DNA of 32,000 nucleotides, taken from Candidatus Baldrarchaeum yapensis (GTDB lineage Archaea > Asgardarchaeota > Baldrarchaeia > Baldrarchaeales > Baldrarchaeaceae). The notes under the pieces were generated by a model, which was given only the letters and a program-made list of their open reading frames with translations, was not told the origin of the DNA and ran no database searches. Positions 7,276-17,037 of the stretch are shown here, piece by piece (position 1 is the first letter of the stretch; each line of letters starts with the position of its first letter). The stretch spans positions 13,495 through 45,494 of the forward strand of contig JAEOSH010000014.1 in the NCBI GenBank assembly GCA_016840465.1. Reading direction: 5' to 3'. The translations under genes and the position numbers were made by a program.

Positions 7276-7976
7276 GAGTCGCCGTTATCCGGTTTCCCGG
7301 ATCAAACTGCGACCTGGACACAGTATTCGTCCTCAGGAAGGTAATAGGCGTGAAAGCCGACCTCGTGTGGCACAAGAACTTCAAAGGAGACTACGACGCA
7401 GTGATACTGCCAGGCGGTTTCTCGTACGGGGATTACCTGCGTGCGGGAATCATCGCGGCCCACAGCCCCGCAATGAAGTACGTCAAGGAAATGGCGCGTG
7501 AGGGACTACCGGTTCTGGGCATCTGCAATGGATTCCAAATACTGATAGAGGCGGGACTTCTCCCGGGAGCGCTGATAAGAAACACGACACTGAAGTTCAT
7601 ATGCAAATGGGTTTTCCTGAAGGTCAAAACCACGCGCACCGCCTTCTCCAACCTCATGAAAAGAGAGCAGGTTCTGAAGATGCCGATCGCGCACAACGAG
7701 GGGAGGTACTTCATAGACGAGAAGGGGCTGAGGGAACTCATGGAGAACGACCAGATAGTCTTCACATACGTTGATGGGGAGGGCAACGAGACCCCGAACG
7801 CGAACCCCAACGGTTCCGTTGCAAACATCGCCGGGGTCTGCAATCTAGAGGGAAACGTCGTAGGGCTGATGCCACACCCCGAAAGGGCCTCGGAAGCCAT
7901 CCTGAGCCCCTACGGAAGCGACGACGGAAAACTTCTGTTCCTTTCCATGAAAAACTTTCTCGAGAGGTGGATGTGA
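7272..7976 (+). CDS. purQ: FGAM synthetase glutaminase subunit PurQ
   Basis: FPGSNCD, PGGFSYGDYLRAG, GICNGFQIL (catalytic Cys), PIAHNEGRY, NPNGS and GLMPHPER. Confidence 0.97.
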   Translation: MRVAVIRFPGSNCDLDTVFVLRKVIGVKADLVWHKNFKGDYDAVILPGGFSYGDYLRAGIIAAHSPAMKYVKEMAREGLPVLGICNGFQILIEAGLLPGALIRNTTLKFICKWVFLKVKTTRTAFSNLMKREQVLKMPIAHNEGRYFIDEKGLRELMENDQIVFTYVDGEGNETPNANPNGSVANIAGVCNLEGNVVGLMPHPERASEAILSPYGSDDGKLLFLSMKNFLERWM

Positions 7977-10216
7977 TGATAGTAGAGCGGCCCGACATGC
8001 AGGTTAAGGTCAACCTCACAAGGGAGGAGCTGGAAAAGGCAAAAGAGATGCTCGGGCGGGAACCCAACATTGTCGAACTCGGAATGATAGACATCATGTG
8101 GAGCGAACACTGCTCCTACAAGTCCTCCCGGGAAGTCCTGAAAATCCTGCCTAGGGAGGGGGAACACGTAATCATAGGGCCGGGACAGGACGCCGGCGTC
8201 GTGGATATAGGAAACGGGCTCGCGGTAGTTTTCAAGATAGAATCTCACAACCACCCCTCTGCGGTGGACCCCTACAACGGAGCCGCAACCGGAGTTGGAG
8301 GAATAATAAGGGACATCCTCTGCATGGGCGCCCGCCCCATCGCCCTCGTCGACTCCCTCAGGTTCGGATTCCCCTCCAGCCCCCACGCCAGGTGGCTGTT
8401 CAGATACGTCGTTAAGGGAATCGCAGATTACGGAAACTGCACCGGGATTCCAACGGTAGCAGGTCAGGTGGAGTTTGACCCCTCCTTCGAGAGAAATTGC
8501 CTTGTCAACGTCGGCTGCGTGGGAATTGCAAGGAAAGACAGAATAATGCCAAGCGTTGCCTCAAACCCTGGGGACGTCCTCGTCCTCGTCGGGGGCTCCA
8601 CCGGAAGAGATGGAATCCACGGCGTCACCTTCGCATCCAAAACCCTCAGCGAAAAATCCGAGGAGGAGAGGTCCTCCGTACAAATAGGAGATCCCTTCAT
8701 GAAAAAACTGGTGATCGAGGCGACGCTGGAGGCCGTGGAGACGGGATATGTAAGGGGACTGAAGGATCTGGGAGGCGGAGGACTGACGTGCGCAACTTCC
8801 GAGATGGCCGCAAAGGGCGGAACCGGGGTGGAAATAGAACTTTCTAAGGTCCACCTCAGAGAGGAGGGAATGACCCCCTACGAGATAATGCTGAGCGAGT
8901 CGCAGGAGCGCATGCTCTTCGTTGTAGATCCAAAAGGTCTCGATAAAGTACTGTCGGTGTTCGAAAAGTACGAGATTCCGTACTCAATAATAGGAAGAGT
9001 CACCGACACCAGAGAGGTCGTCGTCAAACTGAACGGAAAAGTGGTGGCGCGGGTTCCGGCAAAGCTACTTGCCGAAGCCCCCCTTGCAAAGCGCACATCT
9101 AAAAAGCCAGCATACGTCGAGAAGTTGCGTGACATACCACCTCCGCCAATGCCGGAAAACCTCGAAGAAACCCTTCCTCAACTCCTCTCATCACCTAACA
9201 TTGCAAGTAAGGAGTGGGTATACCAGCAGTACGACCACGAGGTCGGAATAAGAACCGTAGTAAAGCCGGGACAGGCAGATGCAGCCGTCCTCAGAATCAT
9301 AGAGGAAGATGGAGGAAACAGGGGAATCGCAATAAAGGCTGACTGCAACTCGAGGCATATGTATCTGGATCCGTTCAACGGCGCCGCCGGTGCTCTGGCA
9401 GAATGCTGCAGGAATATAGTTGCAGTTGGAGGAAAACCACTGGCCTTTGTCGACTGCGCAAACTTTGGCAACCCCGAAAAACCCGAAATATTCTGGCAGT
9501 TCGAAATGGCAATCAAGGGTCTCGCATACATGGCCCGAGGTCTGGGAATACCATGCGTGGGCGGAAATGTCAGCTTCTACAATGAAGATGAAACCACAGG
9601 GAGGGCGGTGAAACCGAGCACCGAGGTCCTAGCAATCGGGCTGGTTGAGGACCTCAAACACGTGACAACAATGGCATTCAAATCTGCGGGAGACGTAATC
9701 GTCGTGGTGGGTAAGACCTTCAGAGAGGTGGGCGGATCGGAATACTACTACATAGTCCACGGGATAGAGGGAGGAAAAGTACCCGCTGCCGATCCGAATA
9801 GGGAGAAGTCCTCCATGAACGCCGTTTTGGAGGGAATAAGGCGCGGATACGTCACCGCTGCTCATGACATTTCGAGAGGGGGATTTGCGGTCGCGCTCGC
9901 AGAAATGGCAATCCAAGGAGGAAGAGGAGCGGAGGTCTTCTTGGACAATATGCCGCGGGAACCCATGCGCATCGACGAACTCCTCTACTCGGAGAGCAAC
10001 GCAAGATTCATCATCACGGTCGAGGAAAAAAACCTCGATAACTTCATATCACTATGCCGCAACACCGGCGCACCCTTCGGGATAATTGGAAGGGTTTCGA
10101 GAAGTAACAGGCTCATTCTCAGGTACGAGAGCCTTGTTCTCGAGTATGATGTCCACCACCTGGAGAAAGCTTGGAAGATGCCAATATGGGAGTACATGGA
10201 GGGGCTGCGCTCGTGA
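7976..10216 (+). CDS. purL: FGAM synthetase subunit PurL (small form)
   Basis: MWSEHCSYKSS, ESHNHPS, GRDGIHG, DLGGGGL, SESQERM, QYDHEV, GGNVSFYN and HDISRGG. ATG 7976 follows SD GAGGTG; GTG 7967 is an alternative. Confidence 0.97.
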   Translation: MIVERPDMQVKVNLTREELEKAKEMLGREPNIVELGMIDIMWSEHCSYKSSREVLKILPREGEHVIIGPGQDAGVVDIGNGLAVVFKIESHNHPSAVDPYNGAATGVGGIIRDILCMGARPIALVDSLRFGFPSSPHARWLFRYVVKGIADYGNCTGIPTVAGQVEFDPSFERNCLVNVGCVGIARKDRIMPSVASNPGDVLVLVGGSTGRDGIHGVTFASKTLSEKSEEERSSVQIGDPFMKKLVIEATLEAVETGYVRGLKDLGGGGLTCATSEMAAKGGTGVEIELSKVHLREEGMTPYEIMLSESQERMLFVVDPKGLDKVLSVFEKYEIPYSIIGRVTDTREVVVKLNGKVVARVPAKLLAEAPLAKRTSKKPAYVEKLRDIPPPPMPENLEETLPQLLSSPNIASKEWVYQQYDHEVGIRTVVKPGQADAAVLRIIEEDGGNRGIAIKADCNSRHMYLDPFNGAAGALAECCRNIVAVGGKPLAFVDCANFGNPEKPEIFWQFEMAIKGLAYMARGLGIPCVGGNVSFYNEDETTGRAVKPSTEVLAIGLVEDLKHVTTMAFKSAGDVIVVVGKTFREVGGSEYYYIVHGIEGGKVPAADPNREKSSMNAVLEGIRRGYVTAAHDISRGGFAVALAEMAIQGGRGAEVFLDNMPREPMRIDELLYSESNARFIITVEEKNLDNFISLCRNTGAPFGIIGRVSRSNRLILRYESLVLEYDVHHLEKAWKMPIWEYMEGLRS

Positions 10217-11646
10217 TTTCTAAATGCATGGAGAAATGCGGCGTCATAGGAGTATATTCTAGGAACGCCGGAGACTCTCAGTGTGCCAGGAGAATATATG
10301 AGGGGCTCGTCGCACTGCAACATAGGGGGCAGGAGAGCGCGGGAATCTACATGTTTAGCGGAGATGGGAGGATAGCGGGGATCAAGGGATCGGGGCTCGT
10401 CACGGAGGTATTCAGCGCCAAGAGCCTAGAGTTGCTAAAGGGATCAGTGGGAATAGGACACGTCAGATATAGCACAACGGGTACCGGAACCACCGATGAA
10501 ATCCAACCGTTCTTCGTGAGAGAGGGAAGGTTCTCATTCGCCCTCGCGTTCAACGGGACGATTACGAACTTTGCAGAAGTGCGGAAGTGGCTCAGAAATC
10601 AAGGATTTTACTTCAAAACCAACACGGACACCGAGGTGCTTGCAAAAACAATAGCGTTCTATCTCTCCGAAGAGGGCTATGACTACTTCGCGGCACTCGA
10701 AAGAACCATGGAGGCGCTGGACGGGGCTTTCTCGGTAGTGCTTATCAACGAGAAGGGAGAGATGCTGGGGATGAGAGATCCCAGGGGATTCAAACCTCTG
10801 TGCCTCGGAGCAACATCGGATCCAGAAATGTACATCTTAGCTTCCGAGAGCGTCGCAATAGACGCCCTGCATGGTTTCCTCCTCGGCGACGTCTACCCAG
10901 GTGAGATTATCAGAATATCGGACGGCGTTGTCGAACGAAAAGTTGCGTGCAAGTCAGAAAAACACTCCCACTGCATGTTCGAGTACGTCTACTTTGCAAG
11001 GGAAGACTCCATAATCGAGGGGATCCATGTATACAATGTCAGGTGGAGACTAGGAGCTATACTCTCAGAACTGTATCCCACCGACGCAGACTACGTAATA
11101 CCCGTTCCGGACACGGGAATAGTCCCCGCCATAGGATTCTCCCAAGCCTCAGGAATTCCGCTGGCTTACGGCCTCGTGAGGAACAAGTACGTTGGGCGCA
11201 CGTTCATAATGCCACAGCAACAGATGAGGGAGGGAGCGGTCCGGGTAAAACTCGGGGTCATAAGATCAGTGGTTTCGGGGAAAAGGATGGTGGTCGTCGA
11301 TGACAGCATCGTCAGGGGAACCACCTCCAAGTTCATCGTAGAACTCCTGAAAAGCTTCAACGCGGCAAAGGTGCACCTCAGAATCTGCTGCCCGCCCATA
11401 GTCTCCCCGTGCTACATGGGAATAGACTTCCCATCCCATAAGGAACTCATAGCATCCAAGATGGACGTGGAAGGTGTCAGGAGGTTCATAGGAGCCGATT
11501 CCCTTGGCTACATGACAATAGACGGGCTTGTCCGCGGAATCGGACTTCCAAAGGGAGAGTTGTGTTTGGCGTGCCTCACCGGGGAATACCCGCTAAAGCG
11601 CCCGGAGGATGTCGACAAGCTGGAGGAGATATTCAAGAGGGGGTGA
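10213..11646 (+). CDS. purF: Amidophosphoribosyltransferase (canonical)
   Basis: Propeptide then CGVIG (Ntn Cys1), LQHRGQE, GHVRYST, FNG, DPRGFKPL, CMFEYVYF, VDDSIVRGTT, PCYMGID and CLAC. Start is GTG 10213 (4-bp overlap with purL) or ATG 10228. Confidence 0.96.
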   Translation: MISKCMEKCGVIGVYSRNAGDSQCARRIYEGLVALQHRGQESAGIYMFSGDGRIAGIKGSGLVTEVFSAKSLELLKGSVGIGHVRYSTTGTGTTDEIQPFFVREGRFSFALAFNGTITNFAEVRKWLRNQGFYFKTNTDTEVLAKTIAFYLSEEGYDYFAALERTMEALDGAFSVVLINEKGEMLGMRDPRGFKPLCLGATSDPEMYILASESVAIDALHGFLLGDVYPGEIIRISDGVVERKVACKSEKHSHCMFEYVYFAREDSIIEGIHVYNVRWRLGAILSELYPTDADYVIPVPDTGIVPAIGFSQASGIPLAYGLVRNKYVGRTFIMPQQQMREGAVRVKLGVIRSVVSGKRMVVVDDSIVRGTTSKFIVELLKSFNAAKVHLRICCPPIVSPCYMGIDFPSHKELIASKMDVEGVRRFIGADSLGYMTIDGLVRGIGLPKGELCLACLTGEYPLKRPEDVDKLEEIFKRG

Positions 11647-11650
11647 TGTT

Positions 11651-12985
11651 TTGAGCGGGATTTTCGGAATTTTCGCGTTTGATGAGATATGGCGCGTTTC
11701 CAAATTCGTATATTACGGACTCCTGGCCCTCCAAACAAGAGGCCAGGAGGTTTGTGGAATAGCGTGTGGAGGATCGGACGGAATAGTAACATGTGCAAAG
11801 AGGGGCTACGTCGATCAATCCTTCAAGGAGAATGAGTTAGAAGGAATAGGCGGATGGTACGGCATCGGCTACGTGGGCGCGGACCCCCAAAATGTACAAC
11901 CCGTGACGGTCCGCCATAACGGCATCACCGTTTCCGTCTGCTATTCCGGGAGAATATTTAACCTGCGGGAGCTCACGAAAAGGTACAATCTCCCGGAAAA
12001 GGAAAACGAAAGCATACTGTTTGCGAAGATTCTGGCATCGGAAGTTAGAAAGAGTGGTCCCATGAACGCCGCCGCGCTTCTGATGGAAGAACTTGAGGGT
12101 GTGTACACGGTGCTGGCAATAACAGACCAAAAGGAGATGGTTGCCTTCAGAGATTCACATGGCGTGAAGCCGCTGACAATCGGGAGTTATGGATTCGATT
12201 ATGGAGCAATAGCATCCGAAAGCGCAGGACTAGAAGTCATAGGCGCCGACTACAAGTCCGACATCATGCCAGGCGAGATATACCTCTTTACAAGCTACAG
12301 CATAGAAAGAGAGCAGGTGAGAGCTCCACAACCGAAATACTGCGCATTCGAGTACGTGTACTACGCCCGCCCCGACTCCATAATAAACGAGAAGTCGGTG
12401 TACGATGTAAGGGTGAAAATAGGCGAGTACCTCGCAAAGGAGAGCCCCGTTGACGTGGATGTTGTCGTAGGTGTGCCTGAAACGGCAATACCCTTCGCAA
12501 TGGCGTATTCAAATGCCACCGGAACACCCATAGCCATGGGATTCATGAGAACGGGGCGCCACACAAGAACCGCAATAAAGCCCACGTACTTCGAGAGACT
12601 CGTGGGGGTGCAGCTGAAGCTTAACCCCATAAAGAGCGTGTTCTCCGGCAAAAGGGTCCTGATAATCGACGACAGCGTCGTGAGGGGAACCACAATGAAG
12701 AACGTAATACACCTTCTCAGAAACAAGATGGGGGCCAAGGAGGTGCATGTGAGGATCGGTAGCCCCCGACTCGTGAACCCCTGCCCCTACGGAACCGAGG
12801 TCCCCACCCGCGACGAACTGATAGCCGCAAACCTGAGCGAGGAGGAGGTCGCAATAGTCACCGGCGCGGACTCCTTCAAGTGGCTCTCGATAGACTCCCT
12901 CATCAAAGCGATCGGATTTCCACGCGAGTACCTCTGCCTTAGGTGTTTTGGAGGTGATGGGGATGAAGGTCCTACTCATAGGTAG
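11651..12985 (+). CDS. purF: PurF paralog lacking the glutaminase nucleophile
   Basis: TTG start after SD GGGGTGA gives MSGIFG instead of CGxxG. LQTRGQE; the GHVRYST equivalent is degenerate. PRTase motif IDDSVVRGTT and Fe-S cysteines (CAFEYVY, PCPYG, CLRC) are retained. Confidence 0.9.
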   Translation: MSGIFGIFAFDEIWRVSKFVYYGLLALQTRGQEVCGIACGGSDGIVTCAKRGYVDQSFKENELEGIGGWYGIGYVGADPQNVQPVTVRHNGITVSVCYSGRIFNLRELTKRYNLPEKENESILFAKILASEVRKSGPMNAAALLMEELEGVYTVLAITDQKEMVAFRDSHGVKPLTIGSYGFDYGAIASESAGLEVIGADYKSDIMPGEIYLFTSYSIEREQVRAPQPKYCAFEYVYYARPDSIINEKSVYDVRVKIGEYLAKESPVDVDVVVGVPETAIPFAMAYSNATGTPIAMGFMRTGRHTRTAIKPTYFERLVGVQLKLNPIKSVFSGKRVLIIDDSVVRGTTMKNVIHLLRNKMGAKEVHVRIGSPRLVNPCPYGTEVPTRDELIAANLSEEEVAIVTGADSFKWLSIDSLIKAIGFPREYLCLRCFGGDGDEGPTHR

Positions 12986-14438
12986 TGGATCACGTGAGCA
13001 CGCAATTGCGGACGCCCTTGCCAGAAGCGTGCATGAGCCGAAGATTTTCGCAGTAATGTCAAATAGAAATCCCGGCATTATCAGGATCTGTGAGAGCACG
13101 GGAGGAGAGTACTTCATCGGAAAGATCACAGACCCCCAATTTGTCAGAGAAATAGGAGAAAGAGTATCCCCCGACTTCGCGTTCATCGGACCGGAAGAAC
13201 CCCAGTTCCATGGAGTATCCGATGCACTTGAGGAGGCGGGCATTCCGTGTGTCGGCGCAAGGGAGAAACTTAGTGAGATAGAGAGGTCGAAGGCATTCAT
13301 GAGGAGGCTCATGTGGAAGTACAGGATACCCGGAAGGCTAAGGTTCAAAGCATTCAAGAACGTGGAGGAGGCGATCGCCTACATCAAGGAGTACGCCGAA
13401 AGCATCGCACTAAAGCCGGCAAGGCAGGCGGGAGGCAAGGGAGTCAAGGTGATCGCGGACATACAGGCGTACCTCAGGAGGGAGAGGACCGAGGTCAAGG
13501 AGAAGCATGCAAAGAAGATCTACGAGGAGCACATGAAACCGTACGACGACATAGAGGACAAAATACTGATAGAGGAGAAGGTCGACGGGCCGGAGTACAC
13601 CCTCCAGTGCTTCACCGATGGAAGGACGGTGCTCCCCCTGCCCCTGGTCCAAGACAATAAGAACGCCTTCGAGATGGACATAGGGCCGGAAACCGGCGGG
13701 ATGGGGTCGATATCGGGGAAGGGCTTTCTACTACCATTCATTGAGGAGGATGAGTTCCGAGAGTCAGTGAAAATAGTGGAATCCGTGGTGAGGGCCCTAG
13801 AGAAGGAGTTCGGCATGAGATATCACGGCGTGATCTCCGGTCAGATGATGCTCACCGCCCTCTGGGGACCCACGATCATAGAATTCTATTCCCGGTTCGG
13901 AGACCCCGAGGGCGTGAACGTCCTCCCGATACTCAAAACCGACCTCGTCGAAATATCCGAGGCAGTAATCTCGGAGAAACTCCACAAGATGAAGATAGAG
14001 GTGGAGGAGAAGGCAACCGTCGTCAAGGCAATAGCCCCTCAGGGATACCCCAACAGGAGAGATCTCGCAAAGGGGCACCCGATAGCCGTGGACGAAAGGG
14101 CAATAGAGGAGCAGGGAGCAAGGGTCTTCTACGGCTCCGTGAACGTCGATAACGGAAGGTTGATAACTGGTGGCTCACGCGCCGTGGAGATATTCGCATG
14201 CGCCGAAACAATAGAGGAGGCGAGCAAGATCGTGGATAAATGCGTTAAGTACGTTAGATGCCTGGACGGATGGGGGCTCTTCTACAGAAGTGACATAGGC
14301 TCGAGCACCCTCCTGCACAGGAGAATGGAACTCGCAGAGCTGGTGAGGAACGTCTACCGCTACAGGAGGTCCAAGGGCATCATCGGGATCAAGATAGACT
14401 GGATTCCCGGAGTTGGAAAAATAGTGTACGAGAGCTGA
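12963..14438 (+). CDS. purD: Phosphoribosylamine--glycine ligase (GAR synthetase), long archaeal form
   Basis: KVLLIGSGSREHAI, GPEEP, SKAFMR, GGKGVKV, IEEKVDGPE, GPETGGMG, RFGDPE and GGSRA. ATG 12963 follows SD GGAGGTGA. Confidence 0.96.
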   Translation: MKVLLIGSGSREHAIADALARSVHEPKIFAVMSNRNPGIIRICESTGGEYFIGKITDPQFVREIGERVSPDFAFIGPEEPQFHGVSDALEEAGIPCVGAREKLSEIERSKAFMRRLMWKYRIPGRLRFKAFKNVEEAIAYIKEYAESIALKPARQAGGKGVKVIADIQAYLRRERTEVKEKHAKKIYEEHMKPYDDIEDKILIEEKVDGPEYTLQCFTDGRTVLPLPLVQDNKNAFEMDIGPETGGMGSISGKGFLLPFIEEDEFRESVKIVESVVRALEKEFGMRYHGVISGQMMLTALWGPTIIEFYSRFGDPEGVNVLPILKTDLVEISEAVISEKLHKMKIEVEEKATVVKAIAPQGYPNRRDLAKGHPIAVDERAIEEQGARVFYGSVNVDNGRLITGGSRAVEIFACAETIEEASKIVDKCVKYVRCLDGWGLFYRSDIGSSTLLHRRMELAELVRNVYRYRRSKGIIGIKIDWIPGVGKIVYES

Positions 14439-14449
14439 GGTGCGTGGCA

Positions 14450-15532
14450 ATGGCTAAGGATAGGGTTAGGGTTGCAGCGATCCAGATATACATGCACGGG
14501 GTCCCGAGCGAGGAGAGGTGGAGAAAGCACATCCACTGGATGAATGAGGCGGTGAGGCTCGGTGCGGACCTCATATGCACGACGGAGTTTTTCCTGGGAG
14601 GCGAAACTTACTGGAGAAAGGAGAGAATAGAGTTCTTCAGGAACTTCTGCAAAGAGAATGGGGTGTACGTCGCGGCGCACTCCTACCAGAGGGTCAAGTT
14701 GGATGGAGACAAGCGGGTGACCAAGAGCAGAATAATATTCTTCGCCCCCGGTGGCGAAATCATCGGAACCTTCGACAAAGTGCATCTCTACCCCACCGAT
14801 GTCCACTTGGCACGCGCGACGCAGGGTACCGACTTCCCGGTGTTCGACACCAAAATTGGAAAAATAGGGTTTGGGGTCTGCGAAGACCTCATGATCCCGG
14901 AACACATACGATGCCTCAGGTCAAGAGGCGCCGAAATAGTGATAATCCCGAGCAGAATGCCGGGGAACTATCTCGTCTGCTGGAAGGATGTCGCAGTTGT
15001 GAGGGCAATAGAGAGCTGCGTCTACATAGTGACAATAGGGGAGGCGGGAATGCACGCGGTGGGGACCCTCGCGGTGAGCCCGCGCCTCGATAATCCAATA
15101 GTTGCCGAAATGGGTCCCCACGAGGGCGTGATGATCGCAGACCTGGATCTCGCATGGCTCAGGTCCGAGCGCAATCGGAAACCAGTACTCGATCAACTCA
15201 GGAAAAAGGAGGATGTCGAGGAACTTTCCGTGAAGACGAAGGTCCACGACTTCGTTTTTAGGCTTGAGGACTGGCAACCTGAGCTGTACATTCCGGTGTA
15301 CGCGGCGGCAAGCATCGACAAGAGGGTCAGGATGTTTTCGGAGAAGGGGATATGGGTCGAAAGGGAGGTTGTGGAGAGGTTGCTGGACACCTACAGCCGA
15401 CTGATGACTGTGGTAGCCCAAATAGAGGAGATCGCTGACGAGAACCTCAAGGTGCGGCTGCCATCGATCGCGGTAATAAAAAGCGATTTTGAATTCTTAA
15501 AACGCCTCTTAGAGGTGCTGAAGGGTGAGTGA
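14450..15532 (+). CDS. Carbon-nitrogen hydrolase (nitrilase superfamily) with C-terminal extension
   Basis: [17 protein letters not shown] (Glu), FDKVHLY (Lys), [11 protein letters not shown] (Cys), VRAIE and [18 protein letters not shown] overlaps the purD stop, and the stop codon overlaps the purE start by 8 bp. Confidence 0.9.
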
Positions 15533-15971
15533 GGAGATAGAAGTCGCAATAGTAATGGGAAGTAAAAGTGATGAGCACGTTGCCAAAAAGGCGGCTGACG
15601 CCCTTTCTGAGTTGGGGATAAAGTACGAAGTTAAGATCCTTTCCGCCCACAGAAACCCCGATGAACTGCGTGAATACATCAGAAAATGCAAAGCTAAGGT
15701 TTTCATCGCAATAGCCGGGCTTTCGGCACACCTTCCCGGATTCATAGCATCACACACCGATAAACCGGTGATAGGAGTCCCCGTTAACGTACAACTCGGC
15801 GGACTCGATGCCCTTCTTTCCATGGTCCAGATGCCCCCGGGTGTGCCAGTAGCGACCGTGGGAATAGACAATGGCAGAAACGCCGCACTTCTCGCCGCAA
15901 GAATACTCGCATTGTTCGATGAAAGGATAAAGAGAAAGTTGGAGGAGGCGAAAAGTGAGAGGAGAGGGTAG
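15525..15971 (+). CDS. purE: AIR carboxylase / N5-CAIR mutase
   Basis: [59 protein letters not shown]. Confidence 0.97.
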
Positions 15972-17037
15972 CGGGTGGACGTACGCAAAAGCGGGTGTCG
16001 ATGAAGGGAAGGTTTCCAAAGCCTTATCCGGAGTTTGGAAGATGCTCATAGAGACCTTTGATTTTAGAAAGGGAAGAAAAGCTCACCCCTTGAACGTGAT
16101 AGGGCACTACGCTGGACTATTAGATGTGGGAACGGACGTCCTGCTGGCATTGCACGTAGACGGAGTGGGCTCAAAGGTTCTAGTGGCGCAAATGCTGAAC
16201 AAATACGACACGGTGGGTATAGACCTCGTGGCGATGCACGCAAACGACCTCATATCGATAGGGGCCGAGCCGGTGGCACTCGTAGATTACCTAGCTGTTA
16301 AGGAACCCGACGAGCAACTCATCCAAGAAGTCATGAAGGGAGTCGTGGAAGGGGCAAAGATCGCGAGAATGTGCGTGATAGGAGGAGAAACGGCGGTATT
16401 GCCAGACGTAATCACCGGATACGAGAGCGGCAAGCCATTTGACCTTTCGGGGATGAGCCTGGGCGTCGTTGAGAGGGATAAGGTCATACTGGGAGATAAG
16501 GTCGAGGTGGGAGACGCCGTGATAGGGCTCGCGAGCAGTGGGATCCACTCCAACGGTCTCACACTTGCAAGGAGGGTTCTCTTCGAGGAGGCGAAAATAC
16601 CACCCTCCGCGTACATTGAGGAGTTGAGGAAAACACTAGGGGAGGAGTTACTCACTCCCACGAGGATATACGTTGACGAGGTGCTGAGCATTTTAGAAAG
16701 CGGAATAGAAGTTCACGGGCTGGCGCACATAACGGGTGGCGCGTTCACAAAGCTGAAGAGGATCTCGAGAGGAAGGGTCAGGATAAGGCTGGATAAGATG
16801 CCGGAGCCTCAGCCGATATTTAAGATGATACAGCGCCTGGGAAATGTCGAAACGGAGGAAATGTACAGGACGTTCAATATGGGAATCGGATTCGTAATAG
16901 TGGCGCCGCGGCGGGAGATTGAGAACATATCATCGGTACTGGAGGAAAAGAGAACTACATACTACGTCCTTGGCCGAGTTGAAAGCGGATCCGACATCGT
17001 CATAAGAGCGTATGATGGAACCCTCATTGTTTTCTGA
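15955..17037 (+). CDS. purM: AIR synthetase (FGAM cyclo-ligase)
   Basis: [42 protein letters not shown] and [10 protein letters not shown]. Confidence 0.97.

Follow-up and report, generated by a model that had tools for sequence, protein, structure and literature searches.

Glutamine phosphoribosylpyrophosphate (PRPP) amidotransferase, PurF, is the enzyme of the committed step in purine synthesis. The window that was analysed here, a stretch of 32,000 nucleotides from the Asgard archaeon Candidatus Baldrarchaeum yapensis (assembly GCA_016840465.1, contig JAEOSH010000014.1, positions 13,495 to 45,494 of the forward strand), holds two genes of this type in tandem, and the second of these, which lacks the N-terminal cysteine nucleophile, is the subject of this analysis. 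The closest described system is that of the Crenarchaeota, in which Brown, Hoopes, White and Sarisky (2011; Biol Direct 6:63; PMC3261824) named a second cluster of PurF sequences PurF' and reported a single PurF and a single PurF' for every Crenarchaeon that makes purines. The crenarchaeal PurF' proteins lack the N-terminal Cys, often having Ala or Val instead, and their genes are located near purF and other pur genes; the protein was judged 'unlikely to be a functional amidotransferase', and the activity of an ammonia-dependent PRPP aminotransferase was put forward as a possibility (PMC3261824). An earlier note on this DNA, made from the letters alone, had mentioned tandem purF pairs without a settled function in crenarchaeal genomes, and these are indeed the genes of Brown et al. 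A functional model is provided by the Cys1 mutants of E. coli PurF, which according to the account in the same paper (ref. 22 in PMC3261824) lost the glutamine-dependent activity and kept the NH3-dependent one: the change of Cys1 to Ser or Ala ends glutamine use and spares the NH3-dependent synthesis of phosphoribosylamine (PRA). These mutants, however, carry one engineered change each, in an enzyme that has no cluster, whereas in PurF' the whole glutamine pocket is remodelled and has long been under selection in that form.

We found that the window gene is a member of the PurF' family, an ancient paralog of the [4Fe-4S]-type glutamine PRPP amidotransferase. It has all four traits of that family: the two-domain architecture (Pfam GATase_7 plus Pribosyltran, i.e. 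a class II glutamine amidotransferase domain of the N-terminal nucleophile (Ntn) type and a type I phosphoribosyltransferase (PRTase) domain), the absence of Cys1, a position in a separate clade, and co-occurrence with purF among pur genes. Three features of canonical PurF (EC 2.4.2.14) are missing, namely Cys1, the glutamine-binding residues and a score above the TIGR01134 cut-off (317.7 bits over the full length against a cut-off of 350; the neighbouring PurF scores 457 bits), and the PRPP loop and the Fe-S ligands are present. The two neighbouring proteins are 36% identical. Searching a large protein collection with the window protein yielded thousands of relatives, the best 120 of which are 45-61% identical, similar in length and annotated only as 'amidophosphoribosyltransferase'; these originate from Nezhaarchaeales, Bathyarchaeia, Hecatellales, Nitrososphaeria/Thaumarchaeota, Thermoprotei, Freyarchaeota and Methanofastidiosia. 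In the trees PurF' and PurF form two reciprocally monophyletic groups with 100% support (FastTree, 142 rows; IQ-TREE, 88 rows), and the window protein sits on the PurF' side together with the PurF' of Acidianus (Sulfolobales; locus L036). Like its crenarchaeal counterparts it is thus encoded by a second PurF-like gene beside purF and other pur genes, belongs to the separate cluster and has no N-terminal Cys. It differs from them in that the host is an Asgard archaeon and in its combination of Ser1 and Ser101, a QTRG motif and a glutamine loop that is six residues shorter, a combination shared by a small clade that includes Njordarchaeales proteins, the sister clade of the window protein. PurF' itself is not new, having been described in 2011, and its occurrence in Asgard archaea widens the range beyond the Crenarchaeota; the result for the window is a modest one, since the gene is an ordinary representative of a known family, met in a phylum that is new for it, and not a new system.

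The motifs of the window protein were compared with those of the neighbouring PurF and of B. subtilis PurF (1AO0). The neighbour keeps CGVIG, QHRGQE, GHVRYST, FNG, DDSIVRGTT and four Cys, and its predicted N-terminus carries a propeptide of three residues (MEK) ahead of Cys1. In PurF' the N-terminus reads M-SGIFGIF against CGVIGVY in the upstream protein. The GHVRYST glutamine loop has become GYVGADP: GIGYVGADP-QNVQP stands for the GIGHVRYSTTGTGTTDEIQP of PurF, and the deletion of six residues removes Arg73, Tyr74 and Thr76. Asn101 corresponds to residue 99 of the window protein (nucleotides 11945-11947), and the Asp127 position is Glu or ambiguous, so that from the canonical glutamine/oxyanion set (Arg73, Asn101, Gly102, Asp127) only Gly102 is retained. 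The likeness to the B. subtilis-type [4Fe-4S] PurF (1AO0, 1GPH; 6LBP of Arabidopsis; TIGR01134) comprises the fold, the four Cys, the PRPP loop, the YxxRPDS motif and the flexible-loop Arg. The cysteines C231, C378, C429 and C432 align to the cluster ligands C236, C382, C437 and C440 of B. subtilis, and the basic residues of the flexible loop are present (RTAIKP aligned to RTFIMP). Apart from the lost Cys1, Arg73, Tyr74, Thr76 and Asn101 and the score below the family cut-off, PurF' differs from this enzyme type in the loop Phe (equivalent to F334 of E. coli), which is an invariant Ala, in the change of VPDS to VPET, and in the lack of a C-terminal tail beyond CxxCFxGxYP.

An AlphaFold2 model of the window protein has a mean predicted local distance difference test score (pLDDT) of 90.5 and a predicted template modelling (TM) score of 0.89, and every block of ten residues in the N-terminal domain averages at least 88. 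Low confidence is confined to the flexible loop (residues 301-320) and the last residues; the former has the appearance that would be expected of a mobile loop. The model superposes on 1AO0, 1GPH and 6LBP with TM-scores of 0.85-0.89 (Foldseek), i.e. it predicts a PurF fold. The earlier note had read the gene from its motifs as a glutaminase-dead, PRTase-intact PurF paralog, and correctly so: the replacement of Cys1 by Ser, the change of QHRG to QTRG (with Arg26 and Gly27 kept), the degenerate equivalents of GHVRYST and NG (FNG to YSG), the conserved PRPP motif IDDSVVRGTT and Fe-S cysteines, the absence of frameshifts and the start 4 bp past canonical purF are all borne out.

Conservation within the family was assessed in an alignment of 51 diverse PurF' (A1) and in a clade-by-clade consensus of 146 PurF' versus 29 PurF sequences. 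Invariant among the 51 are D340, D341, S342, R345, G346 and T348 together with the four Cys, and nearly invariant are GVPETAIPFA and the loop GF..TGR..RTAIKPTQFERLVGVQLKLNP. The flexible loop of PurF' is in fact more conserved than its PurF counterpart, with an Ala for the loop Phe and VPET for VPDS as specific marks. Arg73, Tyr74 and Thr76 are lost in all members and the glutaminase residues are lost clade-wide; the N-terminal half nevertheless has invariant positions of its own (G3, W14, Q28, R30, G31, RDxxGxKPL and GSxGFDxG). Selection was estimated by the Nei-Gojobori method as the ratio of nonsynonymous to synonymous substitution (dN/dS, omega) on close pairs within the family, which for PurF' include Cys-less ones (Val1, Pro1). 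Omega amounts to 0.045-0.10 for the N-terminal and 0.016-0.17 for the C-terminal half of PurF', to 0.04-0.17 for PurF and to 0.065-0.098 for PurD. Both halves of PurF' are under purifying selection as strong as that on PurF, and the relaxed selection in orthologs that the earlier note had named as a possible outcome is not seen (omega 0.02-0.17). The window gene itself is so far from all available relatives (at most 60% identity) that dS is saturated, and per-domain identity was used instead. In the PRTase half the identity to distant genomes is 63-72% for PurF' and 55-59% for PurF in the same genome pairs, and to Acidianus, the most distant, it is 56% versus 46%. In the N-terminal half the two proteins behave alike (39-51% and 42-53%, respectively).

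To describe the distribution, 201 Thermoproteota genomes (at least 90% complete) and 41 Asgard genomes were searched, around 240 in all. A PurF-type gene is present in 142 of the 201 Thermoproteota genomes, and all of those with a PurF'-like best match have a second PurF-type match. About 60 show a single match of around 280 bits. Among these single matches, the three highest-scoring ones and, judged by score and open reading frame (ORF) length, all those listed are canonical PurF; in three single-match PurFs that were fetched the Cys follows a propeptide in each case, and purD comes directly next in two. Within the Asgard set PurF' occurs only directly downstream of canonical purF (8 genomes), the others having PurF alone or a divergent, Cys-bearing third type. 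No genome with PurF' only was seen among the approximately 240 searched.

A survey of 27 related purF' loci from at least seven archaeal classes shows that the arrangement is old. The order purF-purF'-purD is found in every related locus in which all three genes are visible (about 22), spanning Asgard archaea, Nitrososphaeria, Bathyarchaeia, Methanomethylicia, Nezhaarchaeales, Sulfolobales and Theionarchaea, and the same order recurs in four further loci. The purF/purF' junction measures -22 to +24 nucleotides (nt) in 24 of 25 loci and is a 2.7-kb gap in the remaining one, and purF' adjoins purD in every related locus showing both. The connection between purF' and purD is the most constant one, because purF' stays by purD even in two divergent, GC-rich Thermoproteota genomes, where it follows purD and purF lies 7-16 kb off beside purL. 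The PurF' of these two genomes is shortened (~382 amino acids (aa), MSAGLLAIYSF.., RGD for RGQE; L106:1195-2343(+) and L107:1210-2355(+)), and an internal TAG was reported for one of these matches. Elsewhere purF' seemingly consists of two overlapping ORFs, in one Bathyarchaeota metagenome-assembled genome (L053:9836-11304(+)), or carries an in-frame TAA, in another genome (G052:C85:17550-18821); these cases are either occasional pseudogenes or assembly errors.

In the window the local gene order is purL-purF-purF'-purD-(nitrilase)-purE-purM, and the two full-length purF-type genes are the only ones in their genome (Table 1). Canonical purF ends with TGA at 11644-11646 and, after a spacer of 4 nt that implies coupled translation, purF' starts with a TTG at 11651, which is preceded by the Shine-Dalgarno (SD)-like sequence GGGGGTGAT. 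The purF' frame is open from 11597, the upstream in-frame stop being located at 11594-11596, and has no frameshifts or internal stops. The earlier note had considered that an alternative start might give an N-terminal Cys. No such start can restore Cys1, because the in-frame stretch between that stop and the TTG, which reads SARRMSTSWRRYSRGGDV, contains no Cys. The likely ATG of purD at 12963 overlaps the 3' end of purF' by 23 nt and has a perfect SD sequence, GGAGGTGAT, ahead of it within purF' (region 12940-12965). The three genes purF, purF' and purD appear to be translationally chained.

Table 1. Coordinates of the features of the window and of related genes in other loci (prefixed by the locus number).
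Feature	Position	Strand	Remark
purL	7967-10216	+	window purine operon
Canonical purF	10228-11646	+	ORF open from 10171; likely start ATG 10228
SD-like GAGGGGGTGAT	11637-11647	+	within purF 3' end, 3-4 nt ahead of purF' TTG
purF' (Cys-less PurF paralog)	11651-12985	+	444 aa, TTG start
Ser2	11654-11656	+	Cys1 nucleophile equivalent, N-terminal once Met is removed; from alignment
ALQTRGQE	11726-11749	+	ALQHRGQE in PurF, Arg26/Gly27 retained; QxRGQE nearly invariant in family
Shortened glutamine loop GIGYVGADPQNVQP	11861-11902	+	Arg73/Tyr74/Thr76 equivalents deleted
CYSGRIFN	11939-11962	+	AFNGT in PurF; oxyanion-hole Asn101 to Ser, Gly102 kept
KYCAFEYVYYARPDS	12335-12379	+	first Fe-S ligand C231 and YxxRPDS nucleotide-site motif
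PRTase flexible loop GFMRTGRHTRTAIKPTYFERLVGVQLKLNPI	12539-12631	+	PurF'-specific signature, almost invariant
PRPP-binding loop IIDDSVVRGTT	12662-12694	+	residues 338-348; from alignment
Remaining Fe-S ligands C378 (NPCPYG), C429/C432 (CLRC)	12776-12955	+	from alignment
purD (GAR synthetase, PRA-using)	12963-14438	+	ORF 12948/12963-14438; likely ATG 12963
CN-hydrolase (nitrilase family)	14444-15532	+	between purD and purE; PF00795 residues 9-241, ~120-aa C-terminal extension
purE	15525-15971	+	window purine operon
purM	15955-17037	+	window purine operon
Cys-bearing PurF'	L014:7314-8747; L015:7341-8747; L016:7391-8737; L017:7355-8740; L024:9872-11329	+	L024, Candidatus Jordarchaeum
Third PurF type	L007:5992-7392; L013:5962-7419	+	
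Third PurF type	L008:5929-7326; L009:4450-5850; L010:5926-7329; L011:5890-7332	-	
Cys-less MGGLFGVFS-type gene	L021:7623-9038; L022:7479-8900	-	

At residue 1 the PurF' proteins have S, A, G, T, V or P, or else a Cys that follows a propeptide of 4-5 residues (two subclades). Small residues such as these six permit the removal of the initiator Met, in line with the specificity of Met aminopeptidase. Given this pattern, a free small N-terminus may be needed to fill the buried Ntn site, and Ser1 would be one of several acceptable fillers and not a conserved replacement nucleophile, because residue 1 varies among residues that all allow Met removal. Residues 1 and 101 furthermore covary across the family: the pairs are Ala/Asp (30 sequences), Pro/Asp (30), Ser/Ser (23, the window protein included), Cys/Asn (about 17) and Gly/Asp (16). 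The covariation hints that residue 101 is structurally paired with the amine or the side chain of the N-terminal residue, a contact that would plug the dead site. Ser/Ser proteins are found in two separate parts of the tree, and a single origin is not rejected (approximately unbiased (AU) test, p = 0.095); independent origins of Ser1/Ser101, considered as evidence of a catalytic Ser, therefore permit no inference. The Cys-bearing PurF' occur downstream of purF in Jord/Freyarchaeia-type Asgard genomes (4-5 residue propeptide, ..KERCGVFGIYAFD..) and keep Asn101-Gly102 and Asp127, Arg73/Tyr74/Thr76 being absent. A second small Cys-bearing subclade is represented by P0021, P0033 and P0046. The Cys-bearing proteins may represent intermediate stages, or else amidotransferases whose amide donor has changed.

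On this basis we consider it somewhat more probable than otherwise (roughly 0.55) that PurF' is a glutaminase-dead, PRTase-competent enzyme which forms PRA from NH3 and works together with PurF and/or PurD. The Ntn domain is kept as a folded scaffold that cannot bind or hydrolyse glutamine, given the loss of Cys1, of the loop with Arg73/Tyr74/Thr76 and of Asn101. The intact type I PRTase domain, with its flexible loop and Fe-S cluster site, would convert PRPP and NH3 to PRA without glutamine, as proposed by Brown et al. (PMC3261824). That reaction is the most likely activity, since the PRTase site has all its elements and no part of the protein is more constrained. PurF' would be physically associated with PurF and/or PurD and not be a free-standing alternative isozyme; we infer this because its gene lies on the same message between purF and purD and was not seen without purF. 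Long-conserved adjacency of prokaryotic genes is a known indicator of physical interaction; PRA is very short-lived, and a hand-over from PurF to PurD has been proposed. For these two reasons a PurF' that acts with PurF/PurD is favoured, and both the NH3-dependent activity and the complex are to be understood as inferred.

Several points weigh against the proposal of an NH3-using partner enzyme. Canonical PurF itself can use NH3, and a second enzyme for NH3 contributes something new only if it differs from PurF in its affinity for NH3 or in the way it is regulated. In the known PurFs (structures of the B. subtilis and E. coli enzymes) feedback nucleotides bind to the PRTase catalytic site, so that an invariant PRPP loop would be expected equally of a nucleotide-sensing regulatory subunit. 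The separation of purF and purF' in the two GC-rich genomes belongs here as well, and so does the result of a search for longer proteins, in which no PurF-PurF' or PurF'-PurD fusion was found: a 1665-aa NACHT-type candidate for a Rosetta-stone fusion turned out to be unrelated and to carry canonical PurF, and apparent fused open frames of 943-994 aa were resolved as separate purF' and purD genes. Finally, a search of the literature after 2011, Sulfolobus locus tags included, retrieved no PurF' assay, structure or interaction. A regulatory role of this kind is the core of an alternative in which PurF' makes no PRA at all and is a catalytically silent pseudoenzyme subunit of a PurF hetero-tetramer, tuning its stability or its feedback by purine nucleotides via the conserved PRTase and allosteric sites. 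HisZ with HisG and the PRPP-synthetase-associated proteins are precedents, being catalytically dead paralog subunits of PRPP-pathway enzymes, as are the trypanosomatid prozymes; in the former, too, a copy with one lost activity is retained beside the active enzyme, but the PRTase site of PurF' looks catalytically complete. That PurF' was not seen without PurF in the genomes searched, while PurF often occurs without PurF', would fit such a subunit, as would the tight junction with purF across phyla and the dead Ntn domain that still evolves at an omega of 0.05-0.10 with many invariant residues, which points to a structural or interface role. Yet every class of residue for PRTase chemistry is invariant, the flexible loop is even better conserved than that of PurF, a silent subunit has no obvious need for an Fe-S cluster together with a catalytic loop, and the missing PurF-PurF' fusion counts against it too. 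We regard the silent subunit as a tentative possibility, on balance unlikely. Of the three readings that the earlier note had offered, the NH3-dependent isozyme and the subunit of a PurF heteromer are the ones still in play, and the computational evidence fits both.

The same active-site evidence that speaks for an NH3-using partner would also suit an isozyme that has no contact with PurF and serves under plentiful ammonium, its adjacency to purF being left from a tandem duplication. Brown et al. (2011; PMC3261824) advanced this hypothesis, and the distance of 7-16 kb between the two genes in the GC-rich genomes agrees with it. Alternative isozymes are normally regulated separately, yet the 4-nt junction has persisted since before the carrier lineages diverged, and no PurF'-only genome turned up among the approximately 240; we therefore think a free-standing isozyme quite improbable. 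A repurposing of either domain is more improbable still. Ser1 would then be a new Ntn nucleophile acting on another amide or in a PurO-like cyclohydrolase (a repurposed Ntn domain, with PurO as a further enzyme of that fold, had been brought up in the earlier note), or the PRTase would use a nucleophile other than NH3, with the local nitrilase-family amidase supplying substrate or NH3. The joint presence of Ser1 and Ser101 in the window protein and its 22 companions, the retention of Cys1, Asn101-Gly102 and Asp127 (not Arg73) in two subclades, and the CN-hydrolase gene in the window operon could be read in this way. Against it stand the orthologs whose residue 1 is Ala, Gly, Pro, Val or Thr, which leave the family without a conserved nucleophile, the Ser/Ser covariation that may be one event, the lack of conservation of Asp127 in the Ser1 clade, and the PRTase half as the most constrained part; these comparisons of sequences rule out that the family as a whole acts as an Ntn hydrolase or in the manner of PurO. 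The nitrilase, which the earlier note had linked to PurF', has no homolog in any of the 27 related purF' loci. This rules it out as a family-wide NH3 donor, a role considered because NAD synthetase has a glutaminase domain of the CN-hydrolase type; the gene is specific to the operon of its lineage, where it may still have a local role. The degenerate glutaminase motifs might, lastly, suggest a functionless duplicate in decay; the chance of this is negligible, as it is excluded by the intact frame, the omega of 0.02-0.17 in both halves, and a conservation that spans several archaeal phyla and leaves dozens of residues invariant.

The favoured reading, in which PurF' forms PRA from NH3 in association with PurF and/or PurD, can be extended to an obligate PurF-PurF'-PurD assembly that makes PRA and hands it over. 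In such an assembly PurF' would be the main PRTase, the dead Ntn domain would act as a docking or NH3-entry module sealed by the covarying pair of residues 1 and 101, and the Cys-bearing PurF' of Jord/Freyarchaeia would be surviving intermediates. We offer this extension as speculation that is rather unlikely to hold in full. If true, the role of PurF' as main PRTase would account for the slower evolution of its PRTase half compared with that of PurF.

Whatever its function, a second, glutaminase-dead copy has been kept under strong selection in most purine-making archaea of the TACK group (Thaumarchaeota, Aigarchaeota, Crenarchaeota and Korarchaeota) and in several Asgard lineages. Databases label both genes 'amidophosphoribosyltransferase', which amounts to a systematic mis-annotation; knowledge of the function of PurF' would correct this and would reveal the way in which NH3 and the labile PRA are dealt with in these archaea. 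A fitting annotation is 'PurF' (Cys-less PurF paralog)' and not glutamine amidophosphoribosyltransferase.

Two other divergent types of PurF were met in the Asgard genomes. In several of these the only PurF-type gene is a third, divergent type (MCGVLGI..HRGQDASG..GSTRYPT), whose TIGR01134 score of 320-340 bits is below the cut-off of 350, so that automatic annotation may miss it as purF. These low-scoring sole PurFs had been candidates for Cys-bearing PurF', an assignment that was rejected in favour of a third divergent canonical type. In the Asgard genomes G040 and G011 another Cys-less PurF-like gene (MGGLFGVFS.., ~472 aa, 177-192 bits with TIGR01134) is located by canonical purF; it falls outside the PurF' clade and may represent an independent loss of the nucleophile.

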